Notes under the pieces: model-generated
The model's input: only the letters and a program-made list of their open reading frames with translations
Told to the model about the DNA's origin: nothing
Database searches by the model: none
Shown: one piece after another, positions 3,697 through 59,207 of the stretch
Position numbering within the stretch: position 1 is the first letter of the stretch
Layout: each line of letters begins with the position of its first letter
Assembly: GCA_964435065.1 (NCBI GenBank)
Contig: CAYSXS010000001.1
Coordinates: 20,538 to 84,537 of the forward strand
Direction: 5' to 3'
DNA: 64,000 nt
Source: an uncultured Gammaproteobacteria bacterium
GTDB lineage: Bacteria > Patescibacteriota > Patescibacteriia > UBA2196
Made by a program: the position numbers and the translations under genes

Positions 3697-4879
3697 AGAT
3701 AAAAAAATATTTATAGCAGCAGACATATTCCCTCCAACATCAGGTGGCCCAGCCACTTATTCTTTAAATTTAGCTAAAAGTTTACACAAAAAAGGATATA
3801 CAGTTAGGGTTTTAACTTATGGGCATTTACACCAAAGAAAACCAAAAGTAGATTTTAAAATAACTAAAGTTAGTTCGCGCTGGCCTTTGCTTTTGAGGTA
3901 TCTTTTCTACTTCATACATTTGTTTATTCGATCATATAACTATGATGTAATTTATGCTCAAGGACCAGTAGCATCTGGTTGGCCAAGCCTTTTCGTTTCT
4001 AGACTTACAGCAAAGAGGTTAATTGTTAAAGTTGTTGGTGATTATGCTTGGGAACAAGCTAGATTAACACACAAAACCGAACAAGGGATTGAAGAATGGC
4101 AAATAAAGCCAGAATATAAGGAAAAAATAATTGGAAAATCTAGATTACTTATTAAAGCAGAGAAAGCTGTTGTTAAAGCTGCTGATAAAGTTATTGTTCC
4201 TTCTCATTATTTAAAAAAGATAGTAACTGGTTGGGGAGCAAAAGAAGGACAGGTGGAGGTTATATATAACAGCATATCGTTACCAGAAGCTGTAGATATT
4301 TCTAAAGGTGAAGTAAAGAAAAAAATAGGAATTTCTGGGAATATTTTAGTTTCAGTTAGTCGTCTAGTCCCCTGGAAAGGTTTTGAGTTTTTAATCAAAC
4401 TCATGCCTGACTTGTTGAAAATAAATCCAGAATTTAAATTAATCATTGTTGGTGATGGACCAGAATTAAAAAAATATCAAACAATCGTTCAAGATTTAAA
4501 CTTAGTTGAAAAAGTTTTTTTACCTGGTCGTATGTCACAAGAAAAACTTTTATTGTATTTCAAGGCAGCAGATATGTTTTTACTAAATACTGAATATGAA
4601 GGTTTGTCACATTTAATACTAGAGGCTATGTTCTGCAATGTCCCAGTTATTGTTTCAAATAGAGGTGGTAATCCTGAAATTATTGATCATGAAATTAATG
4701 GTTTGCTGGTTGAATATAGCAACAAAGAAGGATGGTTAAAAGCTATTACTAGAATTTGGGAAGATGAGGATAATAAGCTAAGAAAAAGGCTTACAGAACA
4801 TCCAACACCAAAACTTCCATGTTTTAACTTTGATGAATTAGTTAAAAGAACTTTAGAGGTTCTTTTAGAAGAAGATTAA
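3689..4879 (+). CDS. Glycosyltransferase family 4
   Basis: Motif MFLLNTEYEGLSHLILEAMFCNVPVIVSNRGGNPEII. Confidence 0.8.
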   Translation: MNKDKKIFIAADIFPPTSGGPATYSLNLAKSLHKKGYTVRVLTYGHLHQRKPKVDFKITKVSSRWPLLLRYLFYFIHLFIRSYNYDVIYAQGPVASGWPSLFVSRLTAKRLIVKVVGDYAWEQARLTHKTEQGIEEWQIKPEYKEKIIGKSRLLIKAEKAVVKAADKVIVPSHYLKKIVTGWGAKEGQVEVIYNSISLPEAVDISKGEVKKKIGISGNILVSVSRLVPWKGFEFLIKLMPDLLKINPEFKLIIVGDGPELKKYQTIVQDLNLVEKVFLPGRMSQEKLLLYFKAADMFLLNTEYEGLSHLILEAMFCNVPVIVSNRGGNPEIIDHEINGLLVEYSNKEGWLKAITRIWEDEDNKLRKRLTEHPTPKLPCFNFDELVKRTLEVLLEED

Positions 4880-6950: not shown

Positions 6951-7050
6951 AGATTTTGTTTAATTTATATATTTTTATTATATCATGTATTCAGTATATT
7001 TCCGATAATGTAACCGTATATATGGTGTTAGGTGACAGTTGGGCTATTTT

Positions 7051-7548: not shown

Positions 7549-7589
7549 ATTGTTAAATTAGTAATAAAAATTAGCACAATTTTGCTAAT

Positions 7590-7794
7590 GTATGTGTGCA
7601 TCTGAAGTTTGGCACTAATTTTCCTATATTAAAAGTAGTAGCTCTCAATAAATGAAAAAGGATATATCTAACACCAAAACTCCACCCAAACCCCACAAAA
7701 ATTAGTGGGGGACTTGGGTGGAAGAGAATGGACACTCCTTAAGGATTTAATTAATGTCGATTCTCTGTAGCCAGATATACGGTGTTATACGACG
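7590..7794 (+). repeat. Copy A of a repeated non-coding element family. It has the 5' box GTATGTGTGCATCTGAAGTTT and the 3' box CCAGATATACGGTGTTATACGACG.
   Basis: Homologous copies lie at 45820-45932 and 46905-47022. Internally it carries a strong GC hairpin (7681-7720: CCACCCAAACCCCAC-aaaaatta-GTGGGGGACTTGGGTGG). Confidence 0.6.
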
Positions 7795-7835
7795 TAATCT
7801 AAAAGCCGATTCATTATAAATTTTGGTAATTTATT
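7781..7835. repeat. Left arm of a ~55-bp imperfect inverted repeat; its partner is at 8056-8116
   Basis: GGTGTTATACGACGTAATCTAAAAGCC...ATAAATTTTGGTAATTTATT compared with the reverse complement of 8056-8116, GGCGTTATACGACATAATAAAAAGCC...AATAATTTTGGTAATTTATT. The matching core AATTTTGGTAATTTATT is 17 bp. Confidence 0.6.
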
Positions 7836-7836
7836 T

Positions 7837-7995
7837 ATTTTGATCCCTTAGTATTTCCAACACTTTTTCTGGTGGATTGCCGTACCCTTCGCCAGTGTAT
7901 TTATCTGCAACAGCTTTTAGTTCCGGCTTGGAAGCGATAAGATCATTTATTGTATTTTGAGGCGATATTTCGCCTGCGTTTTCTTTCTCCATAAA
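7837..7995 (-). CDS. Possible small ORF (53 aa) between the inverted-repeat arms. This may be non-coding.
   Basis: MEKENAGEISPQNTINDLIASKPELKAVADKYTGEGYGNPPEKVLEILRDQNK. It is GC-richer than its surroundings and has no recognisable family. Confidence 0.2.
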
Positions 7996-8055
7996 ATTTT
8001 TGCGTTATTAATTAATGTTAAAATATATAGAATTATCTTTATACGTCGACCCGAC

Positions 8056-8116
8056 AATAAATTACCAAAATTATTAATAAAATATATAGAGGCTTTTTAT
8101 TATGTCGTATAACGCC
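8056..8116. repeat. Right arm of the ~55-bp imperfect inverted repeat. It overlaps the start of GC-rich element copy 1.
   Basis: See 7781-7835. Confidence 0.6.
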
Positions 8117-8366
8117 GACGGATAGGCGAAGCCTAACGAAGGACTTTCCGCAGGATGTAAGCCGAAGGCTTACAGACTAAGGAAAGGACTGAGTTAGGTT
8201 TGGGCCGAGCAGGGTGAGTGCAGGATCTGGGCGAGCCGCTTATCCGTTGTTGTCAGAAGAATCGTGAGCCTCTAGAAGGCCCAAGCCTATCCGTCGGCGT
8301 TGTCAAAAATTGAGGAGCAAGACTGGAACGAAGTGGAAGGCGAGCGAACGATATTTTTGACAACTC
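8104..8366 (+). repeat. GC-rich 261-bp structured element, copy 1. Candidate structured ncRNA or recombination site.
   Basis: Identical except for one mismatch (260/261 positions) to 47546-47808. It contains a nested perfect 16-bp inverted repeat, ACGCCGACGGATAGGC (8112-8127) pairing with GCCTATCCGTCGGCGT (8285-8300). Internal helices include GTAAGCC-gaa-GGCTTAC and TTGGGCC...GGCCCAA. A second 12-bp stem joins GTTGTCAAAAAT (8299-8310) with ATTTTTGACAAC (8353-8364). Confidence 0.85.
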
Positions 8367-8536
8367 GTTATTATCTGGCCTTTTTGAATATAATATACAA
8401 TATTTTGTATGTTATATGAATATTTGATATAAATCAGTTTTTGTTTATAATTTCATCTTAATTCTAGCTAAAATATGACCTTTATGCAAATAAAGTGCCA
8501 TTTACTAGAACGAAGAAATAGTATAAGATTAAGTAT

Positions 8537-9589
8537 ATGAAGTTACTGTTTTTTACTAGAAAAATAAATAGAAACGACCCAAAAGCAGGGTTTGTTTCGG
8601 ATTGGGTGGAGAAACTGGCTAATGAGGTTGGTTTTTTATATATTTTGGTTTGGCAAAAGTCTAAAGCAGAGAATTTGCCAAAAAATGTTAAATTGATCGA
8701 ATTGCCAAAGAATAAAATATTAAGACTGTGGATTTTAAAATTTAAGCTTTTTAAATATATTCCTAAGGTTGATGGTGTGTTTACACATATGATGCCTATT
8801 TATCCAATTTTAGCTGGTTTTTTTACAAAGATCTTTAGAAAAAAACTTGTTCATTGGTATATGCATAAGAGTGTAGATTGGAAATTAAAGTTATCTAACT
8901 GGTTTGTTGATGAATATGTTTCAGCTTCTAAAGAAAGTTTTAGGTTAAAAACTAAAAAACCAGTCAATATATTTGGTCACGGGATAAATATTAATAAGTT
9001 TAATTTTTTAAATAAACAAGTTGAGAATGAAAATTTTAATATTCTAAGTGTAGGAAGAATAAGTCCAACTAAGAATATTGATACTTTGATTAAAATTGCA
9101 GAGCAAATTCAATTGAATAACCCAGAGTTTAGAGATAAATATATTTTTCAAATAGTTGGTGGCCCAGGGTTAGTATCTCAACAGAAATATTATTTAGATC
9201 TAATAGAAGAAGTTAAAGAAAAAGATTTAAATAATGTTGTTGATTTTATCGGTCCTTTACCTCAAGAAGAAATTTTAGAGTATTACAAAAATTGTGATTT
9301 GTTTATTAATCTATCAGATACAGGTTCAATAGATAAGGTTGTTTTAGAAGCTATGGTGAGTAATAAATTGGTTTTAACTTCAAACGAGGCGTTTAAAAAG
9401 ATTCTTCCTTCAGAACTGTTTTGTGAATCTAAAGATGTAGAATATTTGATTGATAAGATAAAAGAAATGTATTCCATACCAGAAGAGAAGAAAAAAGAAT
9501 TACAACAGCGATTAAAATATGAAGTAATTACTAATCATAATTTAGATAACTTAGTAAAAAAAATAGTGAAACTATATGAAAAAAATTGA
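8537..9589 (+). CDS. GT-B fold glycosyltransferase (GT4-like)
   Basis: C-terminal FINLSDTGSIDKVVLEAMVSNKLVLTSNEAFKKIL. It is the first gene of a ~22-kb co-directional gene run. Confidence 0.6.
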   Translation: MKLLFFTRKINRNDPKAGFVSDWVEKLANEVGFLYILVWQKSKAENLPKNVKLIELPKNKILRLWILKFKLFKYIPKVDGVFTHMMPIYPILAGFFTKIFRKKLVHWYMHKSVDWKLKLSNWFVDEYVSASKESFRLKTKKPVNIFGHGININKFNFLNKQVENENFNILSVGRISPTKNIDTLIKIAEQIQLNNPEFRDKYIFQIVGGPGLVSQQKYYLDLIEEVKEKDLNNVVDFIGPLPQEEILEYYKNCDLFINLSDTGSIDKVVLEAMVSNKLVLTSNEAFKKILPSELFCESKDVEYLIDKIKEMYSIPEEKKKELQQRLKYEVITNHNLDNLVKKIVKLYEKN

Positions 9590-33063: not shown

Positions 33064-33799
33064 AAAGATATTTTTCTATGGAAACACAATCAAATCTTTT
33101 AACAATATATTGTAACTTTTTCCAAGTATTTTTAGTGTTATAGTATTTAAGGAATTTTTTAATAAATGTCATTTTAATATTTGGTACCTCAGTTGCAAAA
33201 TCAAATGGATGAAAATATAAACAAGTAGATTTTTTAATCGTTTTGTTTTTCAATAAGGTTTTAAATAAAAACCAGGGGATAGCTCTGATATAAAAACCAC
33301 CACTAAAAACTTTTATTTCTTTAAAATTATCTATATTAAATAAATTAGGTTTTATACTTAAAGGCAATATTGAAGAGTCATATTTTAAATTATTTTCTTT
33401 TAATACTTTTATTGACCACTCTGTAGATTTATTTAATGAAAAATTAACTGCTCGATGTCCAATTGGTTTTTTGTCGATTAAACTTTCAATCTGACTGATT
33501 AATTGTTTAATTTCTTCATTAAACATTTCTGGATTTTTATCCCACAATGGTTTATGGTCTGAAGAATGAACAGCAATTTCGTGACCAGCATTAGAAATTT
33601 GTTTTACTACATTTGGTTCTTTGTCTAAAACTTTTTTAGTAACAAAGAAGGTAGCAGTTGAATTTGTTTGTTTTAATAAGTTTAATAGGTTATTAATAAA
33701 GGTTGCCACTTCGTCCTTTTCATTACCAAGTAAATATTTTTGTATAGAGAGTGATTCAAACCAATACTCTAAATCAAATGTAAGTAAAATCTTTTTCAT
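33044..33799 (-). CDS. Polysaccharide deacetylase (NodB homology, CE4), ArnD/NaxD-like
   Basis: LTFDLEYWFE...ATFFVTKKVL...AGHEIAVHSSDHKPLW, which covers the NodB motifs TFD(D) and H-S-x-x-H. Confidence 0.75.
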   Translation of the reverse strand: MKKILLTFDLEYWFESLSIQKYLLGNEKDEVATFINNLLNLLKQTNSTATFFVTKKVLDKEPNVVKQISNAGHEIAVHSSDHKPLWDKNPEMFNEEIKQLISQIESLIDKKPIGHRAVNFSLNKSTEWSIKVLKENNLKYDSSILPLSIKPNLFNIDNFKEIKVFSGGFYIRAIPWFLFKTLLKNKTIKKSTCLYFHPFDFATEVPNIKMTFIKKFLKYYNTKNTWKKLQYIVKRFDCVSIEKYLYEDSTN

Positions 33800-40465: not shown

Positions 40466-42682
40466 ATGTTTAATATACAAAACAAATTAATATATTCCAT
40501 AATAATTTTCTTGTTAGTGTTTTTGCCTTTAGGAATAAAGACTGAGGCAAAAGAACAAGAACTTCCTGCTCATCAAGCAGGAGAGCTTCTAGTTAAATTA
40601 AAAACTAGTGAAAAGATTTTTAAATTTAAATTTAGTTCAGATATTGAATTACAAGAATTAATGGATATATATAATTCTCAAGACAGTGTTGAGTATGCAG
40701 AACCAAACTATATCTATCGCGCTAGTTTAGAACCAAAAGATACTTTTTACACTCAACAATTGTATTTATCAAAAATTAAAGCAAATCGTGCTTGGGACAT
40801 TACAACTGGTTCCAGAAGGGTTACAATAGCAATTGTAGATTCTGGTGTTGATTTAGATCATCCAGATTTAAGACAAAATATTTGGTTTAACAATAAAGAA
40901 ACAGTTAATAATAATATAGATGATGATAGGAATGGATATATAGATGATATATATGGTTGGGATTTTGTTGGAGATGATAATGACCCAAATCCTGATACAA
41001 GTGTAGAATACAATAAGACAGGAATAAATCATGGTACAGTAATTTCAGGAATTGCTGCTGCTCAAGGGGGAAACAAAGAAGGAATAGCTGGTATAAGTTG
41101 GTCTAGTAAAATTATGGCACTAAGGGTTTTAGATAGCGAGGGTTATGGAACAACAGACAAGGTTGCTAAAGCTATTGATTATGCAGTTAATAATAAAGCT
41201 GATGTTATAAACCTAAGCTTCGTTGGTACTGGTAAAAGTTTAACTTTAGAAAGAGCAATTAAACGAGCGTATGATGCAGGAGTAATAGTAGTAGCAGCTG
41301 CCGGTAATGAAGTCGCTTCTGGTGTAGATATGGGCAAAGAAGAGAATAAACAATATCCTGTTTGTCATGATGGGCCAAATAGTGAGAATTGGGTGATTGG
41401 AGTAGCTTCAATAGATAATGATGATCATTTAGCTAGCTTTTCAAATTATGGTTCAAGTTGTATTGATTTAGTTACCCCTGGTGTACGTTTGTTTAGTACT
41501 GTGTATCACGATGAATCTAATAGTGATTTCAAAGACTATTATCAACACGGTTGGACAGGTACTTCTGTTTCTGCACCACAAGTAGCAGGAGCGTTTGCTT
41601 TAGTAAAATCATACAAGCCATCTTTTTCTGCTCAACAGATTAAAGATTTGTTTTTAAATAATGCGATAGATATAGATAGCAAGAATCCAACATATAGGAA
41701 TAAGTTAGGTAGTGGTTTAATGAATGTTTATGCAACCATTTCTAAAGCTTTAGGTGAACAACCAGAAGAAGCAGTTAAAAAAGAATTAGTTATCACAGCT
41801 GCTGGACAAGGTGGTGGGCCACATGTAAAAGCTTTTAGAAAAAACTATCTAGAAAATGAATTTTTTGCTTTTGATGCATACTATAGAGGAGGGCTTTCTG
41901 TTGCTTCAGGAGATTTAGATAGAGATGGGGATATAGAGGTTGTGGTTGGTTTGGGAGCAGGAACACATCCATGGTTTAAGATTTTTTCTGAAGAAGGTGA
42001 ATTACAAAGTCAATTCATGGCTTACGGAGAAGGTTTTCGTGGTGGAGTAGAAGTTGCCATAGGTGATGTTGATGGAGATGGTATAAAAGAGATAATTACA
42101 GGGGCTGGTCCTGGAGGAGGTCCACACATTAGAATTTTTTCACATAATGGAGCGTTAAAAAATCATTTCTTTGCTTTTGATAGAAATTTTACAGGTGGAG
42201 TAGAATTAGCAAGCGGAGATGTTAATGGGGATGGTAAAGATGAAATTATTGTAGTTCCAAAATCAAATCGTGAATCAAAGGTTAAAGTATTTAATTTAAA
42301 AGGGGAGTTAATTAGTGAATTTTTAGCTTTTGATTTAGGGGTTAAGAATGGAATACATGTTGCAGCAGGAGATTTAGATAATGACGGAAAAGATGAAATA
42401 ATTATTGGAGCAGGTTATGGCAATAGTCCACAGATAAAAACTTTTGATTTAAATGGTAATAATATAACTGAATTCACATCTTATCACCCTAATTTCCGTG
42501 GTGGTGTGTATGTTGCATCTGGAGATACTGATTCGGATGGGTTTGATGAGATAATAGCAGGTGCTGGTAAAACAGGAGGTCCTCATGTAAGGGTATTTAA
42601 CAAAAATGGGGGATTAGAATTTCATTTCTTTGCGTATAACGAGAACTTTAGAGGTGGAGTTCGTGTGTCTTCAAGTAACTAA
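40466..42682 (+). CDS. Secreted subtilisin-like serine protease (S8) fused to a C-terminal FG-GAP-type repeat beta-propeller
   Basis: Signal peptide present. Catalytic triad motifs AIVDSGVD (Asp), HGTVISGIAAA (His) and GTSVSAPQVAGAFAL (Ser). These are followed by ~7 repeats of ...GGGPHVKAF...FFAFD..FRGGV.VA.GD.DGDG.DEII... Confidence 0.8.
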   Translation: MFNIQNKLIYSIIIFLLVFLPLGIKTEAKEQELPAHQAGELLVKLKTSEKIFKFKFSSDIELQELMDIYNSQDSVEYAEPNYIYRASLEPKDTFYTQQLYLSKIKANRAWDITTGSRRVTIAIVDSGVDLDHPDLRQNIWFNNKETVNNNIDDDRNGYIDDIYGWDFVGDDNDPNPDTSVEYNKTGINHGTVISGIAAAQGGNKEGIAGISWSSKIMALRVLDSEGYGTTDKVAKAIDYAVNNKADVINLSFVGTGKSLTLERAIKRAYDAGVIVVAAAGNEVASGVDMGKEENKQYPVCHDGPNSENWVIGVASIDNDDHLASFSNYGSSCIDLVTPGVRLFSTVYHDESNSDFKDYYQHGWTGTSVSAPQVAGAFALVKSYKPSFSAQQIKDLFLNNAIDIDSKNPTYRNKLGSGLMNVYATISKALGEQPEEAVKKELVITAAGQGGGPHVKAFRKNYLENEFFAFDAYYRGGLSVASGDLDRDGDIEVVVGLGAGTHPWFKIFSEEGELQSQFMAYGEGFRGGVEVAIGDVDGDGIKEIITGAGPGGGPHIRIFSHNGALKNHFFAFDRNFTGGVELASGDVNGDGKDEIIVVPKSNRESKVKVFNLKGELISEFLAFDLGVKNGIHVAAGDLDNDGKDEIIIGAGYGNSPQIKTFDLNGNNITEFTSYHPNFRGGVYVASGDTDSDGFDEIIAGAGKTGGPHVRVFNKNGGLEFHFFAYNENFRGGVRVSSSN

Positions 42683-44703: not shown

Positions 44704-45735
44704 ATGGTATACATTGTAATTTTAACTTGGAATGGAATCAAATATTTACCCAAATTGTTTACAAGTTTGGGTAATTTAGTTTTTGATGAAAATAAGTTGA
44801 AAATAGTTGTTATTGATTCAGGATCAACAGATGGGAGTAGAGAATATTTGGAGGATTTAGATAATATACATTTAATAAAATTAGATAAGAATATCGGGTT
44901 TGTTAAGGGTAATAATTTGGGAATGCAATATGCTTTGGATAATAAAGCAGAATATGTTGTGTTATTAAACCAAGACATAGAAGTTAAAGAAGATTTTTTA
45001 GATTATTTAGTAAATACAGCAGAAAGCGATAAAAAGATTGGTATAGTACAGCCCTTAATGATGTATTATGAAAATAGAGAAGAAATTAATTCTAAGGGTA
45101 ATCTTTTACACTATCTAGGATATGGATATTGTGAAGGTAACCATGAAAAAGTTACAAATAACAAACAAACAAAAGAAATTGAATATGCTTCTGCTGCCGC
45201 AGTGATATATAAGGCAAAGATGTTAAAAGAAATAGGGTTATTTGATGAAAATATTTTTGCTTATCATGAAGATAGTGAAATTTGTTTAAGGGCTAAATTA
45301 AGAGGATACAAAATATATTTAGAACCTAAATCTATTGTTTATCATGATTATTCTTTCCCAACAGGAAAGAATAAAGAAAGATACTTTTGGATGGAAAAGA
45401 ATAGACTATACATAATCCTTAAATTCTATAAACTAAAAACAATCTTTTTGATTTTGCCGATGATATGGTTTATGGATTTAGGACAGATATATTTTGCAAT
45501 TACTAAAAGATATTTTTATCAATGGTTAAGATCAAGGTTTTGGTTTGTTTTTAATTTAAACAGTTTTTTAAAAGCTAGAAGAGACATACAAAAGAATAGA
45601 CAAATTTCTGATAAAGAATTAACTAAGAATTTCACTAGTGAAATTCTTTATCAAGAAGTTTCTAATCCTTTATTAGATAAAATTGCTAATCCAATAATGA
45701 AGGTCTATTGGAAAGTAGTTAAAAAATTTGTTTGA
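44704..45735 (+). CDS. Glycosyltransferase family 2
   Basis: VYIVILTWNGIKYLPKLFTSL...IVVIDSGSTDGS, plus the DxD-type motif LNQDIEV. Confidence 0.75.
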   Translation: MVYIVILTWNGIKYLPKLFTSLGNLVFDENKLKIVVIDSGSTDGSREYLEDLDNIHLIKLDKNIGFVKGNNLGMQYALDNKAEYVVLLNQDIEVKEDFLDYLVNTAESDKKIGIVQPLMMYYENREEINSKGNLLHYLGYGYCEGNHEKVTNNKQTKEIEYASAAAVIYKAKMLKEIGLFDENIFAYHEDSEICLRAKLRGYKIYLEPKSIVYHDYSFPTGKNKERYFWMEKNRLYIILKFYKLKTIFLILPMIWFMDLGQIYFAITKRYFYQWLRSRFWFVFNLNSFLKARRDIQKNRQISDKELTKNFTSEILYQEVSNPLLDKIANPIMKVYWKVVKKFV

Positions 45736-45780
45736 AATAAAAAATAGCCGTTGGTCGCAGCTATTTTTTATTTCAAACAA
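45729..45780 (+). terminator. Rho-independent terminator (long A/U-rich stem) at the end of the + operon
   Basis: GTTTGAAATAAAAAATAGC-cgttggtcgca-GCTATTTTTTATTTCAAAC. It overlaps the stop codon of the GT2 gene. Confidence 0.65.
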
Positions 45781-45819
45781 GGTGATATTTAATCAGTTTT
45801 AAAATATTTTTTGAATAAC

Positions 45820-45932
45820 GTATGTCTGTATCTGAAGTTTTTTGCTTTCTTCATTACTATCGAAAGCAAAATTAGTAATTTAAGCGAAGGGCGAGCCGAG
45901 CCCTTAAGCCAGATACACGCCGTTAAGCGACC
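45820..45932 (+). repeat. Copy B of the repeated non-coding element family (5' box GTATGTCTGTATCTGAAGTTT; 3' box CCAGATACACGCCGTTAAGCGACC)
   Basis: Homologous to 7590-7794 and 46905-47022. Internal hairpins are TTTTGCTTTC...GAAAGCAAAA and AAGGGC-gagccga-GCCCTT. Confidence 0.6.
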
Positions 45933-46091
45933 CCAACGGAATGAAATGGAGTGAGAGCACAGCGTGGCCCGAGTTCAAAAAATATTTTTCGTCTTTATTC
46001 ATCAGATAGTCTTTCGTATATTTCTTATAAATTTGATTTTTTCGTTTTGAAAAATGAAAGAGGGGTTAGCGGTGAATTTCATTTTTTAGAA

Positions 46092-46655
46092 TTAATAATA
46101 TTTCTCTATTCCTCCAAAACCTATTAGTTTGTTTTCTCTTGTTTTGTTGATGAAGTTTTTTAGCCTTTTTTTGAATTCTTCTGGATGCTTTTGTACTCTA
46201 TGAATATAGGCAATACGAATTCTTTTGTATGTATCAGAAAATGTATTGTAATTTTTCCATGCGATTTTATCCTCCTTTACAGCATCAATGATGTCTTTTG
46301 GAAAAACAAACTTTTCTGAGGCAATTTTCTTTGCTTTGTCCAATATTAGGGGATGAATCATGTCATGTTTTAAAAGCCATTTTATTCTTTCTTTGTTTTG
46401 CTGAGAATAAGTGCTTTTGGGATTTCTTGGAGAAAAACGTTGAACACTACTCTCTTCATCAAAAGATTTAATCGTGCTATCGATCCAACCAAAACATAAT
46501 GACTCCTCTACGGCATCGTTGTATACAATTCTTATTTTACCTGAAGATTTTTTCGGATACATCAACCAGACATCTTTTTCTTTATCAAAATTCTTTTCCA
46601 GCCATTTACGCCAGTCTTTCCTATTTGTCACATAGAGTGTTTTTTCTATATTCAT
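46092..46655 (-). CDS. YdeI/OmpD-associated family protein (bacteriocin-protection-like, DUF1801-related)
   Basis: ...DVWLMYPKKSSGKIRIVYNDAVEESLCFGWIDSTIKSFDEESSVQRFSPRNPKSTYSQQNKERIKWL... Confidence 0.6.
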   Translation of the reverse strand: MNIEKTLYVTNRKDWRKWLEKNFDKEKDVWLMYPKKSSGKIRIVYNDAVEESLCFGWIDSTIKSFDEESSVQRFSPRNPKSTYSQQNKERIKWLLKHDMIHPLILDKAKKIASEKFVFPKDIIDAVKEDKIAWKNYNTFSDTYKRIRIAYIHRVQKHPEEFKKRLKNFINKTRENKLIGFGGIEKYY

Positions 46656-46699
46656 TTTATTTATTATAAATTAATGAATGATAATTTTAAATATTTTCA

Positions 46700-46924
46700 T
46701 GATCCATTTATTTGAGTCGCAAAATTATTTAAAATCTGTGCTAACTCAACAGGTTTACCAAGCATGGGAAAATGCCTAGAATCGATATCATTTTTTTTGA
46801 CTTGAAGATTCTTAATCATATTATCCTGAATTTTCTCACTAAATGCCTTATTTTTTTTCAGGCGAATATATAGGGAATTAACAGGGATGTCTTTTGTGTT
46901 TAATGTATGCGTACATCTGAAGTT
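46700..46924 (-). pseudogene. C-terminal fragment of an alpha/beta-hydrolase fold gene whose 5' part is missing
   Basis: The minus-strand translation ...DIPVNSLYIRLKKNKAFSEKIQDNMIKNLQVKKNDIDSRHFPMLGKPVELAQILNNFATQINGS* carries the catalytic-His 'HFPML' C-terminal signature of alpha/beta hydrolases. The frame is open to ~46924 and then terminates exactly inside repeat copy C. No start or N-terminal domain is present. Confidence 0.5.
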
Positions 46925-47022
46925 TCAGCTCCTTCTTTGTAGCTTATCAATATATTAACAGATAAAAAAGATACAAAGAAGGAGCTGAAATTTGGATGAA
47001 CATTTGGCGTAGTTGTACGAAG
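46905..47022 (+). repeat. Copy C of the repeated non-coding element family (5' box GTATGCGTACATCTGAAGTTT; 3' box CATTTGGCGTAGTTGTACGAAG)
   Basis: Perfect 17-bp hairpin TCAGCTCCTTCTTTGTA...TACAAAGAAGGAGCTGA. It abuts the truncated hydrolase gene. Confidence 0.6.
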
Positions 47023-47195
47023 TTCTGTTTTTTAGCTACGACTGCAAGGAGTAGCTATTTGGGCGATAAGCCCAAATAAAGAAATATTTTTTGTTATTTT
47101 TAGCTTATTGACTTATATTTTTACCTATGCTTATATTATGTAATAAAGACTAAACCAATAATTAAAATTTTACAAATAAGGTAGGAGAAATAGTT

Positions 47196-47441
47196 ATGAA
47201 AGATTTAATTAACTTTGGAGACAAGCTTCCTAGGGTCGGTCAGATTATCAATTTGTTTCGTCCTCCCGGAGCTTCCATAGTTTCATGTGAAGATACGAAG
47301 GGTTGTAGCAGTGAAAAGAGATGGGAAGTTGACAATCTTGTTGCGGATGGAGATTTTTGGTTTCGTTGCACAAAATGTAACAGATTAATCTCTCTTCATG
47401 CTAACGTGAAAGAAAAATATAATTGGAAATCGTGTGATTAA
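47196..47441 (+). CDS. Small (81 aa) Cys-rich, zinc-ribbon-like protein of unknown function
   Basis: Strong RBS AGGAGA 8 nt upstream. It has a C-x5-C ... C-x2-C arrangement (SCEDTKGC / CTKC) and is GC-richer than the surrounding genes. Confidence 0.5.
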   Translation: MKDLINFGDKLPRVGQIINLFRPPGASIVSCEDTKGCSSEKRWEVDNLVADGDFWFRCTKCNRLISLHANVKEKYNWKSCD

Positions 47442-47545
47442 GCGACACGAAGAAATAAACTTGTATCATGGCCCAGCAAGTATAAAATATGGGTCTTTTT
47501 CATTTGCCAGAAAAATAACAAAAAATATTTCTTAAAAAATGGAAT

Positions 47546-47808
47546 TTCGTACAACGCCGACGGATAGGCGAAGCCTAACGAAGGACTTTCCGCAGGATGT
47601 AAGCCGAAGGCTTACAGACTAAGGAAAGGACTGAGTTAGGTTTGGGCCGAGCAGGGTGAGTGCAGGATCTGGGCGAGCCGCTTATCCGTTGTTGTCAGAA
47701 GAATCGTGAGCCTCTAGAAGGCCCAAGCCTATCCGTCGGCGTTGTCAAAAATTGAGGAGCAAGACTGGAACGAAGTGGAAGGCGAGCGAACGATATTTTT
47801 GACAACTG
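47546..47808 (+). repeat. GC-rich 261-bp structured element, copy 2
   Basis: 260/261 nt identical to 8104-8366, with the same orientation and the same nested inverted repeats. It ends 108 bp upstream of the tyrosine recombinase gene. Confidence 0.85.
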
Positions 47809-47915
47809 GTTTATATATGAAAACAATTCGTATAATGACCTTTATTTGTACTGTATACGAATGTATCGTATAATTAATCTATATATAATTTTATTATAAT
47901 CTTTTTTTAAAAAAT

Positions 47916-48749
47916 ATGCAATTTGATTTTGAAAAATATTTAAATAAAACCAAAGACGAGTTAAGGTTAAGAAATTATAGTCAAAAGACCATAAAAAGCT
48001 ATTCAGGTTGTTTGAAAGATTATTTTAATTTTTTAAATACTAATAAGGGTATTGTTGACTTAAAATCAGTTGAAAAAGTAAAAAAATTTTTATTGAATAA
48101 ACAGAACAAGGGCAATTCAGGACAAACTATAAATTTATATTTAAATGCTATTAAATTTTTTTATAGAGATATTCTGAAGAATAATGAAAAAATAGATTTG
48201 AAGTTTTCTAAAACAAGTAAAAAATTGCCGGTGGTTTTATCACATAGTGAAATTGAAAAAATATTAAGTCATATTAGGAATGGTAAGCATAAATTAATGA
48301 TTTCTTTGGTTTATGGTGCTGGCTTAAGGATAAGTGAGGTAATTAATTTAAAAGTCCAAGATGTTGATCTAAATGAATTAACAATTCATTTAAAACAAGC
48401 AAAAGGCAAAAAAGATAGAATAACAATTCTATCTCCTAAAATTAAAGAAGAGCTGAATAACTTTTTGATGAACAAGCAGATGAAAGATTTGGTTTTTGAA
48501 AGTGAACGAGGTGGTAAGTTATCTGAAAGAACAGCTCAAAAAGTTTTTGAAAATGGATTAAAATCAGCTAAAATAAATAAACCAGCAACTTTTCATTCTT
48601 TGCGTCATTCATTTGCAACACATTTATTGGAAAATGGGGTAGATGTACGTTATGTGCAAGAACTATTAGGACATGCAAATATTCGTACAACACAGATATA
48701 CACTAAAGTAACTAATCCAAGCTTAAAAAATATTAAAAGTCCATTATGA
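47916..48749 (+). CDS. Tyrosine site-specific recombinase (phage-integrase / XerCD-like family)
   Basis: N-terminal SAM-like core-binding domain. Catalytic motifs are GLRISEVINLKVQDVD (Arg I), HSLRHSFATHLL (HxxR) and GHANIRTTQIYTKV (the Tyr nucleophile). 277 aa. Confidence 0.85.
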   Translation: MQFDFEKYLNKTKDELRLRNYSQKTIKSYSGCLKDYFNFLNTNKGIVDLKSVEKVKKFLLNKQNKGNSGQTINLYLNAIKFFYRDILKNNEKIDLKFSKTSKKLPVVLSHSEIEKILSHIRNGKHKLMISLVYGAGLRISEVINLKVQDVDLNELTIHLKQAKGKKDRITILSPKIKEELNNFLMNKQMKDLVFESERGGKLSERTAQKVFENGLKSAKINKPATFHSLRHSFATHLLENGVDVRYVQELLGHANIRTTQIYTKVTNPSLKNIKSPL

Positions 48750-49852
48750 AAATAGCTCATGTTGTTTGTAGATTTCCACCATATAAAGGTGGAATGGGAA
48801 ATGTAGCATATGAGCAAGCTAAAGAGCTTGCTAAATTAGGGTATGAAGTTACAGTGTTTACACCAAATTATTCTCATAAAGAACAGGATTTTAATTTTAA
48901 TGTAATATATTTAAAATCTTTAATTAAATTTGGTAATGCTGCTTTTTTACCTCAGTTGATATATAGGTTGAGGAAATTTGATGTTGTACAATTACACCAT
49001 CCTTTTTTTGGTGCTACAGAAATTGTTTGGGTAGCAAAAAAGTTAGGATTAATAAAAAAGTTGGTAGTTTTTTGTCATATGGAATTTATTCCTAAAAATT
49101 TGTTTTTTAAACTTTTTATGACACCAGATAAAATTATTTTAAAATCTTTATTAAACTCATCAAGTAAAATAGTTGTTAGTAGCTTAGATTATGTTCGTCA
49201 ATTATCAATTAAGAAGTACTTTGAAAAGAATAAAGAAAAATTTATTGAGATTCCTTTTGGTTCACAATTTAATTTACCTGAGTTGAAAGAAAAAACAAGA
49301 GATAAGAATATTCTTTTTGTTGGTGCTTTAGATAAAGCACATAATTTTAAAGGTGTAGATATATTATTAAAATCCTTTAAAGAGGTTTTGTCTAAAGTAA
49401 ATGATATCAAATTAAATATTGTTGGGGGTGGAGATATGATGGAAGAATATATTAAACAAGCCAAAGGTTTAGGGATTATTGATAATGTTAATTTTCCTGG
49501 GCGTGTGTCAGATGAAAAATTGAAAGAATATTATGCAAATTGTGATTTTTTTGTATTACCTTCCGTGGATTCTGGTGAAGCTTTTGGGTTAGTTCTTGTC
49601 GAAGCGATGAGTTTTGCAAAATCAGTTATTGCTTCTAACTTGCCAGGCGTACGTACAGTTTGTAGAGACAATCAGAATGGGTTTTTAATTGAACCAGGAA
49701 ATATGCAAGATTTAACTGAAAAAATGTTAAAATTAATACAGGATAATGATTTATCTAAAGAAATGGGTAAAAAGAGTAGACAAATAGTAGAAAATGAATA
49801 TACTTGGCCTGTTCATGTAAAGAAATTAGAAGAAGTTTATGAGAGTATATAG
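48746..49852 (+). CDS. Glycosyltransferase family 4
   Basis: FVLPSVDSGEAFGLVLVEAMSFAKSVIASNLPGVRTV. It overlaps the recombinase stop by 4 nt (ATGA). Confidence 0.8.
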   Translation: MKIAHVVCRFPPYKGGMGNVAYEQAKELAKLGYEVTVFTPNYSHKEQDFNFNVIYLKSLIKFGNAAFLPQLIYRLRKFDVVQLHHPFFGATEIVWVAKKLGLIKKLVVFCHMEFIPKNLFFKLFMTPDKIILKSLLNSSSKIVVSSLDYVRQLSIKKYFEKNKEKFIEIPFGSQFNLPELKEKTRDKNILFVGALDKAHNFKGVDILLKSFKEVLSKVNDIKLNIVGGGDMMEEYIKQAKGLGIIDNVNFPGRVSDEKLKEYYANCDFFVLPSVDSGEAFGLVLVEAMSFAKSVIASNLPGVRTVCRDNQNGFLIEPGNMQDLTEKMLKLIQDNDLSKEMGKKSRQIVENEYTWPVHVKKLEEVYESI

Positions 49853-56837: not shown

Positions 56838-57216
56838 GTCCGGGTAGGTGAGTGATTACCTGTATTTCTTAGGAAATATGGGAGGAAAGTCCGAACACCA
56901 ACCTATTCAATTAGGAATAATAGTTCTGAAATAGAACCAGGTATAAGACTTACGAGAAAAGTAGTTCACGATCGTGTTACTTTTAGTGGACAAAGTCAAA
57001 ACCTCGAGCTAGTGCCACAGAGACTATACTAACCCTTATGGGTGAAATGTGAAAAGTGAACTGATGTTTTTTTAAAGCTACAGTTCTCATCCCTTGGTGA
57101 CAAGGAGATGTGGTAAACCTTATTTTGGTGCAAGTCATAATTGACGCGTAGATAGATGATCACAATTACTGCTTTGCAGTAATACAGAATTCGGCTTATG
57201 ACCCTGCCTGGACAAC
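56838..57216 (+). ncRNA. rnpB: RNase P RNA (bacterial type, ~379 nt)
   Basis: Conserved P4 strands GGAGGAAAGTCCGAACACC (5') and ACAGAATTCGGCTTATG (3', corresponding to ACAGAACCCGGCUUA). P1 closes through GTCCGGGTAGG pairing with CCTGCCTGGAC. The region is GC-richer than its flanks and contains no ORF. Confidence 0.8.
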
Positions 57217-58766: not shown

Positions 58767-59207
58767 ATGAAAAATATAAATTCAAACAATTTAGTGGGCG
58801 CAGAGAAATTAAGAGAGCTTGTAAGGGAAGAATTAAAAAATACTGCAACCAAAGATGATTTAAAGGGTTTTGCAACCAAAGATGATTTAAAGGGTTTTGC
58901 AACCAAAGATGATTTAAAAAACTTTGCTACTAAAGATGATTTTAATAATTTAGCAGATAAAGTTTTAGGATTAGACACAAAAATTGATAATGTTAAGGAA
59001 GATCTACAGGATCAAATGAATGAAAAATTTGATAAAGTTTTAGAAAGCAATGATAAACTTGGAAAAAAGATGGATATCATAATTGCAGAGTCAGCAGCAC
59101 ATTCTAAGTCATATAAAGATAATGAAGAAGAAATAGAAAAACATGAGGAAGTTTTGGATAATCACGAAAATAGAATTAAGGTTTTGGAAATACAACCTGC
59201 AATATAA
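58767..59207 (+). CDS. Coiled-coil protein with 4 tandem 9-aa repeats (ATKDDLKGF)
   Basis: ...NTATKDDLKGFATKDDLKGFATKDDLKNFATKDDFNNLADKVLGL... followed by a charged helical region. A TTGTTA-17-TACAAT promoter-like sequence lies upstream. Confidence 0.5.
   Translation: MKNINSNNLVGAEKLRELVREELKNTATKDDLKGFATKDDLKGFATKDDLKNFATKDDFNNLADKVLGLDTKIDNVKEDLQDQMNEKFDKVLESNDKLGKKMDIIIAESAAHSKSYKDNEEEIEKHEEVLDNHENRIKVLEIQPAI
58845..58952 (+). repeat. 4 tandem copies of a 27-bp repeat (GCAACCAAAGATGATTTAAAGGGTTTT) within the CDS
   Basis: Copies 1-2 are identical, and copies 3-4 are progressively diverged. This also explains the spurious antisense ORF at 58742-58978. Confidence 0.85.

Follow-up and report, generated by a model that had tools for sequence, protein, structure and literature searches.

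What does a tyrosine recombinase do at the head of a glycosyltransferase operon, directly behind a GC-rich element and a set of short inverted words? The question is raised by a 64,000-nt stretch of patescibacterial DNA (the window), and the comparison with related loci suggests an answer of fair probability: a gene-cassette platform that resembles an integron and is general to CPR/Patescibacteria, with its recombinase end in this region. From an earlier, sequence-only reading of the locus, the dedicated recombinase and its adjacent substrates are retained, whereas the tie to the operon, the island, and the inversion are given up.

The recombinase gene (47916..48749, + strand) heads a plus-strand operon and encodes a Xer/XerA-like tyrosine recombinase of 277 aa. 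The protein matches Pfam Phage_integrase (PF00589, 6e-44) and PF13495 (4e-14), and has the two-domain fold of the tyrosine recombinase superfamily, with a SAM-like N-terminal and a catalytic domain. The full catalytic set is present (R138, K163, H227, R230, H253, and Y262), including the complete R-HxxR-Y active site recognized earlier (R138, H227-x-x-R230, Y262). The score against NCBIfam recomb_XerA_Arch passes the cutoff (237 bits, cutoff 220), while that against the integron integrase model TIGR02249 stays under it (226 bits, cutoff 265). The best matches in the PDB are IntI4 (1e-44), XerA (5e-41), and XerD (6e-24). Residues 8-182 align with IntI4 5-179 and residues 199-277 with IntI4 239-317, leaving an insert of ~40 aa in IntI4 (the additional domain, I2 helix region) without a counterpart. 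The IntI-specific insert is needed by integron integrases for the recombination of single-stranded attC sites, and its absence speaks against the platform. Over the 80 closest loci, all from CPR-type MAGs (one MAG has two loci), the identity is 56–79%. The recombinase is probably a member of the 'Cand' subgroup of simple tyrosine recombinases, a Xer-related clade confined to candidate phyla (Smyshlyaev et al.); in that classification the candidate-phyla proteins adjoin Xer, and such class-specific recombinases may replace it.

The TGA stop codon of the recombinase overlaps, as ATGA, the ATG at 48746 of a GT4 glycosyltransferase gene (48746..49852, + strand; Pfam PF00534, 2.8e-43), as had been observed, and this gene belongs to the conserved side of the site, opposite the cassettes. 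The accompanying statement that at least 12 glycosylation genes follow holds in part, as not all of them serve glycosylation: a SNase-family nuclease gene and the RNase P RNA (56841-57214, downstream of the recombinase and the sole Rfam match in the window) are among them. In related loci the recombinase is usually the first gene of its operon, with an overlap or a gap of ≤50 nt to a varying partner. The next gene (n = 70 loci) is lepA in 13–15, GT1/GT4 in 15, GT2 in 5, and def in 4, and prfA, fmt, mreB, and murJ are also found in this place. Since the partner varies (lepA, def, fmt, glycosyltransferases), the link between recombinase and glycosyltransferase is not specific, and with such a partner in only ~20 of the 70 loci the supposed tie to a glycosyltransferase operon proves incidental; this operon is simply what occupies the conserved side of the site in the present lineage. 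The recombinase is very highly conserved and shares operons with lepA, def, and fmt, which would fit a housekeeping Xer with another main job, a point against the platform.

A conserved 28-bp dif-like site, ATTTCRCATAAC|TCGTTTATATRCGAA, is found upstream of the recombinase gene in nearly all loci, and the recombinase-led operon runs away from it. This class I, attI-like site lies ~105–165 nt 5' of the gene in 72 related loci (~120 nt typically) and has the two-arm layout and the 28–31 bp of Xer/dif sites. Its core comprises a D arm (ATTTCNNNNAA), a 7-nt central region, and a C arm (TATRCGAA). The position weight matrix of 62 orthologous sites shows inverted arms, TTCRCATAA and ATATGCGAA, around CTCGTTT, with AAC|TCGTT and CGAA among the invariant positions in these loci; matrices of half-sites alone are too unspecific for mapping sites. 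In the window, site 2 (47795..47822, + strand; D arm ATTTTTGACAAC, central region TGGTTTA, C arm TATATGAAA) scores 19.1 bits versus 11.9 bits for the best match in shuffled sequences, and its position matches that in the 72 related loci. Site 1 (8353..8380, + strand; 22.5 bits) has the same D arm, the central region TCGTTAT, and a degenerate C arm (TATCTGGC). Aligned with site 2 and the closest relative (L015), it is followed by the same promoter-like region and then by a GT1-family gene at 8537, with no recombinase; in L015 the recombinase sits between the site and the homologue of the 8537 operon.

The regulatory region 3' of site 2 (47826..47874, + strand) contains an inverted C-arm copy (TTCGTATAA, 47827-47835), a -35-like TTGTAC (47846-47851), and a -10 TATAAT (47869-47874), with a C-arm half-site (TATACGAAT, 47854-47862) inside the 17-nt spacer. 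The stretch TTGTAT-N17-TATAAT with an embedded TATGCGAA is conserved in most of the 80 loci and also 3' of site 1, and it is this conservation that suggests a promoter function; the stretch is not listed by a generic promoter scan because its -35 is weak, and the generic promoter and terminator scan gave results no better than shuffles. The repeated TCGTATAA word reported near the recombinase and the elements is present in five copies in the window (1.64 expected), four of them beside the two GC-rich elements, at 7785 (minus strand), 8105, 47828, and 47866, but the copy assigned to 47854-47862 is only an inverted 7/8 match. These words are C-arm recombinase half-sites around the promoter-like stretch, an arrangement that may allow autoregulation. 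Together with the GC-rich element they are among the putative substrates of a dedicated recombinase, in keeping with the earlier view that this is no simple prophage integrase.

The GC-rich element is equally real (54% GC, against 29% for the window) and occurs as two direct copies, 100% identical over 255 nt (8111-8365 and 47553-47807); the identity spans the AAC of the D1 arm to the AAC-T after the D3 arm, and the flanks differ. Copy 2 (47544..47806, + strand) matches the covariance model of the structured units described below (CM R1; 44.5 bits, E 5e-9) at full length at 47544-47702. It is composed of the D1 arm (47544-47555), the structured unit up to 47702, a second 3' half with the D2 arm (GTTGTCAAAAAT), a 42-nt loop, and the D3 arm (47795-47806), and its RNA fold has an energy of -115.6 kcal/mol (z -7.5). 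In copy 1 (8102..8364, + strand; CM R1 42.8 bits, E 1.5e-8) the D1 arm ATGTCGTATAAC is at 8102-8113, the unit at 8102-8260, and the D3 arm at 8353-8364. The first 159 nt of the element fit the unit model and a short hairpin follows; we read the element as an ORF-less mini-cassette at the primary site. The D1-S1...S1r-D2-loop-D3 layout is present in 12 other loci, with a stem sequence that differs in most species. Essentially no sequence homologues of the element were found in other species by nhmmer, and its kinship across species is visible only in the architecture and through the covariance model. Rfam, at gathering and permissive thresholds, has no match at the element or the units, and a scan of metagenome contigs for other copies returned only one already known contig.

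The outermost unit of the recombinase-adjacent array is U3 (45808..45933, + strand; CM R1 66 bits, E 1.3e-14). The cassette between U3 and U4 (45934..46892, - strand) carries an OmdA/YdeI-like gene (46092-46655; Pfam PF13376, 1.9e-10) and a 40-aa ORF (46697-46819), both oriented away from the recombinase. U4 (46893..47023, + strand), a weak family member (CM R1 23.8 bits, E 1.3e-3, filters off), forms a long hairpin with the inverted D arm AGTTGTACGAAGT at its end and folds as ssDNA with an energy of -27 kcal/mol (z -7.3). The next cassette (47024-47543) reaches to the unit at 47544-47702, and its only sizeable ORF (47196..47441, + strand) encodes the 81-aa Cys-rich protein, for which the strong ribosome-binding site (AGGTAGGAG) and the CX5C...CX2C pattern are indeed present. 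This protein has no Pfam or NCBIfam match and no homologue in the 80 related loci, so that the label Zn ribbon is putative; an identical protein is encoded on 8 metagenome contigs. The cassettes of the 81-aa ORF and of the OmdA-like gene are ordinary ones. Near site 1, the unit U1 (7578..7795, + strand; CM R1 62.1 bits, E 1.4e-13) and the unit at 8102-8260 enclose a cassette (7796..8101, - strand) with a 53-aa ORF (7831-7992) and, beside the D arm, a conserved promoter-looking block common to L016, L029, L038, L057, L059, and L074. The 53-aa protein is found on 11 metagenome contigs, in a single orientation in all 10 shown.

Across the related loci the unit extends from a D arm with AAC to GTT with an inverted D arm and measures 86–218 nt, with 125 copies in 55 loci. 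With E ≤ 0.1 as the threshold CM R1 gives 130 matches, every one of them on the strand of the recombinase; the related loci contribute 125 upstream of the recombinase (243 kb searched) and none downstream (396 kb searched). Units are present in 53 of the 56 loci having at least 800 nt of upstream sequence; the upstream stretches covered measure at most 6 kb, and arrays of up to five units were found in them. The model is specific, with 0 matches in 712 kb of viral contigs that hold the seed words (80 of 120 reported seed-word matches were screened, with no true unit). Computed on the alignment fitted to the model, the structure has 31 pairs, with 94.5% of cells paired versus 70.9% in shuffles (slid controls 31–50%); 23 pairs vary on both sides, and the covariation score is 0.548 versus 0.141. 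The units share a three-way junction, invariant internal motifs, and two near-invariant G-U/G-T pairs, which, as G-T, favor the strand antisense to the ORFs. Two observations count against the platform: the internal motifs and G-U/G-T pairs resemble a functional RNA more than attC, and both DNA strands fold about equally well, with similar energies.

The median gap between units is 786 nt, and the cassettes mostly hold one ORF; in 101 of 111 the longest faces away from the recombinase, and it fills 76% of the gap. The gene content is diverse: among 104 cassette proteins 66 Pfam families are represented, none more than twice (restriction-modification genes, Ltp, and glyoxalase among them), and only five pairs of proteins are homologous. 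Upstream of the recombinase gene, the repeats delimit an array of cassettes resembling that of an integron. As in integrons, the array is made of units with palindromic ends, which differ from canonical attC (no Rfam match), and a primary site lies beside the recombinase gene, itself transcribed away from the cassettes.

Turnover of these cassettes is suggested by the comparison of genomes, here species-level MAGs, whose assemblies tend to break at repeats. Six related pairs are collinear from a start between -122 and -176 through 6.8 kb downstream and cannot be aligned upstream. In five pairs this synteny break coincides with the D arm's first base; the pair starting at -176 has GC-rich elements. 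Between L080 and L091 the distal 2.5 kb are kept and the proximal 3.3 kb are different, whereas L066 and L079 have one 818-nt cassette in common, at different array positions and with both ends exactly at AAC|GT. Upstream of the recombinase gene, 23 of 80 contigs break off at a distance of ≤320 nt, against none downstream, and nine start at most 9 nt before a crossover AAC (binomial P ~5e-6). The circular junctions proposed as a check have a counterpart in two contigs with reciprocal junctions (one each): L006 joins the 53-aa cassette, the element, and the recombinase, and L008 the 81-aa cassette, the element, and the 8537 gene. The support they lend is weak, as both may be chimeras because the 255-nt exact repeat crossed exceeds the assembler k-mer.

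In the proposed platform the array runs away from the recombinase gene, and each cassette would combine an element of 90–220 nt folded as a three-way junction with, as a rule, one ORF and with a D arm at its end; the element begins right after the AAC of a D arm and ends with GTT and an inverted D arm. For the exchange of cassettes, strands would be cleaved in the D arms, at their AAC triplet. Recombination between two units would excise a circle, in which the terminal D arm would rejoin its own unit and complete the palindrome; recombination of the circle with the primary site would then insert the cassette beside the recombinase. We infer that the recombinase at 47916-48749 catalyzes these exchanges, that insertion has this direction, and that the substrate is folded single-stranded DNA. 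No recombination product was directly observed, which stands as an objection to the platform.

Some of the same features would also suit a plain chromosome-dimer-resolution module, with a single Xer whose gene adjoins dif, on the model of XerS/difSL; the units upstream, like the GC-rich element, would then be selfish IMEX- or MITE-like insertions piled up at dif, and no cassettes would be shuffled. This reading, which overlaps partly with the platform, seems unlikely, although it is not without merit. Read on its other strand, the site is TTCGCATATA-AACGAG-TTATGTGAAAT, similar to bacterial dif and in agreement with E. coli dif at 10 of 11 positions of the XerD-arm part. The recombinase passes the XerA equivalog cutoff, is conserved at 56–79% identity across CPR classes with coupling to housekeeping genes, and belongs to proteins that the published classification sets beside Xer as possible stand-ins. 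Against this, no plus-to-minus GC-skew switch occurs at the site in the window or in any of 36 loci (an indicative test with 6-kb flanks only; four loci, miscomputed through short upstream flanks, are ignored), and the cumulative skew rises through both sites of the window, so a location at the terminus is not supported. The operon behind the recombinase is oriented away from the site instead of converging on it, two full sites lie 39 kb apart in the window, and one MAG has two loci. Random accretion, moreover, would not be expected to yield regular one-ORF spacing, 91% co-orientation, and shared cassettes bounded by AAC. We also regard it as very unlikely that the units are RNA elements (3' stabilizers or terminators of cassette genes, or small RNAs) and that the recombinase merely borders a variable region. 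Their conserved three-way junction, invariant motifs, two conserved G-U pairs, and position at the 3' ends of ORFs would suit such a role, but the G-T pairs favor the antisense strand, there are no Rfam matches, the unit ends bear the D arm and AAC of the recombinase-adjacent site, and shared-cassette ends and synteny breaks fall exactly at the AAC triplet.

The sequence-only reading had considered a switch of surface-glycan expression by excision or inversion between the GC-rich elements or the inverted words, like capsule phase variation, which we find quite unlikely. In its favor, two direct copies of the site and promoter-like region in the window each head a long glycan operon, the 39.4-kb segment between the sites holds only glycan-synthesis genes, and a perfect 10-bp inverted repeat flanks 7784-8113; both reciprocal junctions exist as contigs (L006, L008), and in L015 the recombinase precedes the other operon. 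The junction contigs, however, cross the 255-nt exact repeat in low-coverage k141 assemblies, the glycosyltransferase is partner in so few loci (~20 of 70), and no replication genes are visible that an excised 39-kb circle would carry. The central regions also differ (TCGTTAT at site 1, TGGTTTA at site 2), so full exchange between the sites should be hindered. Inversion finds no support in the 53-aa segment (7796-8101), the one segment flanked by inverted arms, which has a single orientation in 10 of 10 metagenome contigs, unlike an invertible promoter. An integrase of a prophage or genomic island carrying glycosylation genes, finally, is scarcely credible: an integrase gene does lie beside repeats that flank 39 kb, but neither the window nor 24 loci have a tRNA or tmRNA target, the 39-kb segment shows, among its listed families, glycan synthesis only and no mobile-element hallmark, and the composition is uniform across the window. 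The earlier suggestion of an island-borne locus does not hold, because the downstream side of the recombinase is the conserved one, syntenic with housekeeping neighbors across CPR.

The platform has its closest parallel in integrons. In both, a tyrosine recombinase at one end is transcribed away from the cassettes, with a simple primary site adjoining; the cassettes share one orientation, mostly hold a single ORF, and bring accessory genes of great diversity; an imperfect palindrome comes after each ORF, with AAC...GTT ends, a variable center, and some bases unpaired; crossover takes place at the AAC/GTT triplet, as the comparison suggests for CPR; turnover is concentrated at the recombinase-proximal end; and the strand antisense to the ORFs is favored for folding, at which the G-T pairs hint here. 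The closest solved homologue of the recombinase is IntI4. The CPR recombinase differs in lacking the ~40-aa IntI insert, in its score under the integron-integrase cutoff, and in being highly conserved as the first gene of a housekeeping operon. A symmetrical core of dif type serves as its primary site; the units, at 86–218 nt, are larger and share a conserved three-way-junction core as well as fixed internal motifs; some cassettes seemingly have their own promoter block; and the arrays seen are short. With XerS/difSL, XerH/difH, and archaeal XerA/dif the locus shares a single Xer-type recombinase, a 28–31-bp site with inverted arms, and the match to the XerA profile. For XerS/difSL of streptococci the site is reported to lie immediately upstream of the recombinase gene, as here (PMC1914069). 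The CPR locus differs from these systems by the lack of a skew switch at the site, the two sites in the 64-kb window, and a one-sided array of units and cassettes. IMEX (the CTX phage with its folded attP, TLC, the gonococcal genetic island) likewise have no integrase of their own, insert at dif-like sites, are flanked by hybrid sites, use a hairpin substrate with inverted recombinase-binding arms, and have non-homologous central regions, suggesting single-strand exchange. The CPR inserts, by contrast, are cassettes with one gene or none, arrayed in order and in one orientation, without phage or replication genes, and their unit family is conserved across the whole radiation. The pdif modules of Acinetobacter plasmids are also discrete gene modules that move between contexts, with Xer-type sites in alternating orientation, but these are plain 28-bp XerC/D plasmid sites, with no large structured unit, adjacent dedicated recombinase gene, or co-orientation.

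Full-text searches of the literature on integrons, attC, cassettes, and Xer/dif in CPR or Patescibacteria yielded no account of this arrangement, only the name of the 'Cand' recombinase subgroup. Current integron finders require an IntI domain and canonical attC, and for that reason would be expected to miss such arrays; the covariance model and the 28-bp site matrix offer an immediate means of finding them. We see an even chance that CPR/Patescibacteria have their own integron analogue, built on a Xer/XerA-type recombinase without the insert and a much larger structured site, of independent origin or a relative of the Xer-like ancestor of integrons. Such a system would capture and reshuffle single accessory genes (restriction-modification, resistance, surface proteins) beside an essential operon, and here it may mobilize the 39-kb glycan locus as a giant cassette. 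If this is true, the platform would explain a recurrent break point of CPR metagenome assemblies and would provide a comparison case for the step from double-strand Xer to hairpin recombination, without the insert thought necessary for it. In CPR bacteria, with their tiny genomes and dependence on hosts, the gain and variation of accessory genes are poorly understood; a platform of this kind shared by the whole radiation would be a general route of gene capture in these bacteria.

The gene at 47916-48749 (+) encodes a tyrosine recombinase of 277 aa (Pfam Phage_integrase, 6e-44; SAM-like domain at the N-terminus), and its catalytic residues R138, K163, H227-x-x-R230, H253 and Y262 include the R-HxxR-Y set recognized in the sequence-only reading. 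In NCBIfam scoring the protein passes the XerA model cutoff (237 bits vs 220), misses that of the integron integrases (226 vs 265 bits), and is far under XerC/XerD. IntI4 is the best solved homologue (1e-44), ahead of a pair of archaeal XerA proteins (5e-41; 7e-39) and of XerD (6e-24); in the alignment, ~40 integron-specific residues of IntI4 have no counterpart in the recombinase. With each species represented by a single genome, the scan yielded 80 loci with homologues 56–79% identical, all from low-GC CPR-type MAGs of many classes (Moranbacteria, Kuenenbacteria, Wolfebacteria, Peregrinibacteria, Roizmanbacteria, Shapirobacteria and others). The family probably corresponds to the group of Xer-related simple tyrosine recombinases that Smyshlyaev et al. 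named 'Cand'. Several contigs of 24–41% GC with CPR-type loci (L015, L017, L019, L024, L034 and others) are titled Gammaproteobacteria, Bdellovibrionales or Cyanobacteriota, and are probably mislabelled MAGs.

As had been read from the sequence, a GT4 glycosyltransferase gene begins at 48746 with an ATG that shares bases with the TGA stop of the recombinase. Of 74 loci, 69 have the next ORF in the same direction as the recombinase, usually at a spacing of ≤50 nt, and in 11 loci it overlaps the stop, as in the window. The partner gene is lepA in 13–15 loci, GT1/GT4 in 15, GT2 in 5 and def in 4, with prfA, fmt, mreB and murJ also found in related loci. Since the next ORF is close or overlapping and its identity varies, heading an operon through translational coupling is a trait of the family, with the glycosyltransferase as one of several partner options; the earlier finding as a whole was correctly observed and in part wrongly interpreted. 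Among the + strand genes 3' of the recombinase, an RNase P RNA (RF00010, 107 bits) is present at 56841-57214 (+), flanked by a 270-aa ORF and a sugar-transferase gene. Tandem in-frame repeats of 27 nt occupy 58827-58961 within the ORF 58767-59207, and 153-nt FG-GAP-type repeats occupy 41850-42657 in a subtilase-family gene (40466-42682).

Comparison of the 230 nt upstream of every homologue shows a conserved 28-bp site (class I site), ATTTC[A/G]CATAAC|TCGTTTATAT[G/A]CGAA, located ~105–165 nt 5' of the recombinase start codon. Its arms, TTCRCATAA (D arm) and ATATGCGAA (C arm), are inverted about a 7-nt centre, and positions A10 A11 C12 T13 C14 G15 T16 T17 and C24 G25 A26 A27 are near-invariant in a matrix of 62 sites. 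The reverse complement of the site resembles bacterial dif. On its 3' side the site is followed by an inverted C-arm copy and then by a conserved TTGTAT-N17-TATAAT, the spacer of which holds a further C-arm half-site. These C-arm copies explain the TCGTATAA words of the earlier reading, whose placement beside the GC-rich elements stands: the window has 5 copies (1.64 expected), and four adjoin the two elements. The TTGTAT-N17-TATAAT stretch is absent from the output of a generic promoter scan, so it is its conservation that suggests a putative promoter. The matrix scan finds exactly two full class I sites in the window (best shuffled score 11.9 bits): site 2 at 47795-47822 (+; 19.1 bits), adjoining the recombinase, and site 1 at 8353-8380 (+; 22.5 bits), followed by the same promoter-like region and then by a GT1-family gene, with no recombinase. 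Their central regions are unlike (TCGTTAT in site 1 vs TGGTTTA in site 2).

A 23-nt box recurring in the window is the 5' part of a larger element, the unit, which is also found in the related locus L029 directly after a GC-rich element. By word search both unit ends occur dozens of times in related loci, always 5' of the recombinase and on its strand, the 5' end reading D arm, AAC, GTATCGGCAT(C)ATCTGAAGTT and the 3' end AGCCAGATATGCCGT, GTT, inverted D arm. Sixteen aligned units, from which a covariance model was built, share one three-way-junction structure with compensatory changes in 15 of 31 pairs. Over the window and the 80 loci the model gives 130 matches (E≤0.1), all in the orientation of the recombinase; the related loci contribute 125 in the 243 kb searched upstream of the gene vs none in the 396 kb searched downstream. 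At least one unit is present in 53 of the 56 loci with ≥800 nt of upstream sequence, and no match was obtained in 712 kb of viral contigs selected for seed-word content. In the alignment of 98 matches, which is fitted to the model, 94.5% of cells are paired (70.9% in shuffles, 31–50% in slid controls), both sides change in 23 of 31 pairs, and the covariation score is 0.548 vs 0.141. With filters off, the window holds five units, all on the + strand: U1 (7578-7795, E 1.4e-13), U3 (45808-45933, E 1.3e-14), U4 (46893-47023, E 1.3e-3), and the 5' parts of the two GC-rich element copies (8102-8260, E 1.5e-8; 47544-47702, E 5.3e-9). Weak matches outside both arrays at 33513-33612 (−; E 0.028) and 6998-7038 (+; E 0.08), also with filters off, are probably due to chance. 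The MAG JBAQNP01 has two recombinase loci (L033 and L074) with units upstream of each, and represents either more than one platform per genome or a mixed bin.

The GC-rich element, noticed earlier in the sequence, is real: it has 54% GC (29% in the window) and occurs as two direct copies 39,442 nt apart, 8111-8365 and 47553-47807 being identical over 255 nt with unrelated flanks. It folds far better than shuffled sequences on either strand (z −7.5 and −6.7), and no Rfam family matches it. As the covariance matches show, its nucleotides 1–159 fit the unit model; a second 3' half follows, and then a hairpin formed by two D arms, one inverted and one direct; the direct one (D3) also serves as D arm to the class I site. 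The composite layout is D1, AAC, stem, GTT, D2, loop, D3, AAC. Besides the window, 12 loci have it at the class I site and a further 5 to 7 have part of it, and it recurs within arrays; most species have a stem sequence of their own, and D2 covaries with D3. D1 (ATTTC...) looks like the native arm and D3 (ATTTTG...) like an imported one, and we read the element as an ORF-less mini-cassette. Its 3' extension contains a minus-strand intrinsic-terminator-like hairpin, TGGGCCTTCTAGAGGCTCA with a T-rich tail (47707-47725 and 8265-8283).

The stretches between units (cassettes) have a median length of 786 nt; the longest ORF of a cassette occupies 76% of this length and is directed away from the recombinase in 101 of 111 cases. 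The 104 cassette ORFs fall into 66 Pfam families, each seen at most twice, with only five homologous pairs; their products include DNA methylases, a HaeIII-type endonuclease, Ltp lipoprotein, glyoxalase/bleomycin-resistance proteins and LD-carboxypeptidase. The window cassettes carry a 53-aa ORF (7796-8101), an OmdA-like gene with a 40-aa ORF (45934-46892), and an 81-aa ORF (47024-47543) in the minority + orientation. The last, a Cys-rich ORF, exists as described earlier, and neither family profile searches nor the 80 related loci provide a detectable relative. A block TCGACC..AAATTGCCAAAA..AGRGGCTTTT, conserved directly beside the D arm (window 8040-8101; L016, L029 twice, L038, L057, L059, L074), resembles a promoter region for the first cassette gene, which is on the opposite strand. 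Another strongly conserved non-coding block, a hairpin plus CACCTTATACCCCCCTCTTAAAAAATAAAAATCAAATTT, is located some 170–230 nt upstream of the recombinase start in L018, L021-L023, L037, L039, L050, L056, L064, L066, L067, L071, L078, L080, L089, L091 and L093, and also at L028 3640-3680; it often precedes a small GNNA-loop hairpin, GGGCGATAGCCC, 15–20 nt before the D arm. The L028 array has two cassettes with a tRNA-like or tmRNA-like domain (1467-1538 and 4117-4189), each preceded by a promoter-like TTGACA-N17-TATACT; their RF00023 scores, 14.7 and 21.8 bits, are under the gathering score, and ARAGORN reports nothing there.

Six pairs of related genomes, whose aligned blocks are 74–92% identical in nucleotide sequence, share a collinear stretch that begins between −122 and −176 and runs through the recombinase to 6.8 kb downstream; upstream of it they are unalignable. 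For five pairs the stretch begins within −122 to −136, with the D arm's first base; the sixth, which begins at −176, has GC-rich elements. Between L080 and L091 the distal 2.5 kb of the array are kept and the proximal 3.3 kb differ, the pattern expected if new cassettes enter beside the recombinase. One 818-nt cassette is common to L066 and L079 at unlike array positions: similarity begins exactly after the AAC of one D arm, the arms themselves differing, and stops exactly after the AAC of the next, the subsequent units also differing. Likewise, identity between the GC-rich copies begins precisely at the AAC of D1 and ends at the AAC that follows D3. Contigs end ≤320 nt upstream of the gene in 23 of 80 cases and ≤320 nt downstream in none; nine begin ≤9 nt before a crossover AAC (e.g. 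TAAC|TCGTT, TAAC|GCGCGC; binomial P ~5e-6 with a generous target size), the outcome of a de Bruijn assembler where one right flank is joined at that point to several alternative left flanks. We infer that exchange would take place at the class I site and the AAC triplet.

Formally, the window corresponds to a 53aa-element-site-recombinase chromosome entered by a 39.4-kb circle at a D-arm AAC. In L015, the closest relative, the recombinase lies between the site and a homologue of the operon that starts in the window with the GT1-family gene at 8537. The interval from site 1 to U3 contains glycan-synthesis families only (GT1, GT2, methyltransferases, radical SAM, epimerases, sugar transferase). 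Phase variation of glycans through excision or inversion, as proposed earlier, is improbable. Two metagenome contigs, L006 (ERZ27316110 k141_113424; 7804-8101, element, 47808 onward) and L008 (ERZ27316076 k141_145782; 45094-47543, element, 8366-8997), carry the two reciprocal junctions expected from a 39.4-kb excision between the GC-rich elements. They are short megahit contigs whose k is exceeded by the exact repeat they cross, L008 is more diverged in its right half (97.8%) than in its left (99.4%), the parental junction 53aa-element-8537 is present in three JGI assemblies, and none of the independent contigs retrieved spans the 81aa-element-recombinase junction. The population is present in the JGI samples 3300005915, 3300023257, 3300025669, 3300022868 and 3300005918, in run SRR5581654, and in the runs underlying ERZ27316110 and ERZ27316076. 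Because a chimera through the 255-nt exact repeat would look the same, and given the parental-junction counts and the L008 divergence, they are a lead and not evidence. The other earlier proposal, an island integrase, is the least credible.

A plain Xer/dif module with parasitic insertions would account for the dif-like core and the XerA-like protein, and appears unlikely: cumulative GC skew rises through both window sites, the plus-to-minus switch expected at a terminus occurs in 0 of 36 loci (four miscomputed because of short upstream flanks were ignored; flanks are short, so the test is indicative only), the operon behind the recombinase is directed away from the site, and there are two loci in one MAG and two sites in the window. 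A dual role in dimer resolution and cassette capture is possible, and is the main rival reading. That the units are RNA elements only is very doubtful, even if a functional RNA would equally show the conserved internal motifs CTGAAGTT, AATTTGGGYCGAG and GAGCCAGATA and wobble pairs. Both DNA strands of the unit fold about equally well; the near-invariance of two G-T/G-U pairs (each in 94 of 98 matches) favours the + strand, which lies opposite the cassette ORFs. These pairs, the AAC-GTT pairing at the unit ends followed by a conserved G-T, and the extra bases on the 5' strand relative to the 3' strand recall attC sites, and the TCGACC block beside the D arm is possibly the counterpart of the integron Pc promoter. 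In the full-text literature, with a coverage excluding most subscription-journal papers, no description of such an arrangement in CPR/Patescibacteria was found, and only the naming of the recombinase subgroup came up. We consider it probable that these loci form a CPR-wide integron-like cassette platform, which would work as integrons do, yet with a recombinase that falls outside the integrase-domain test defining them.
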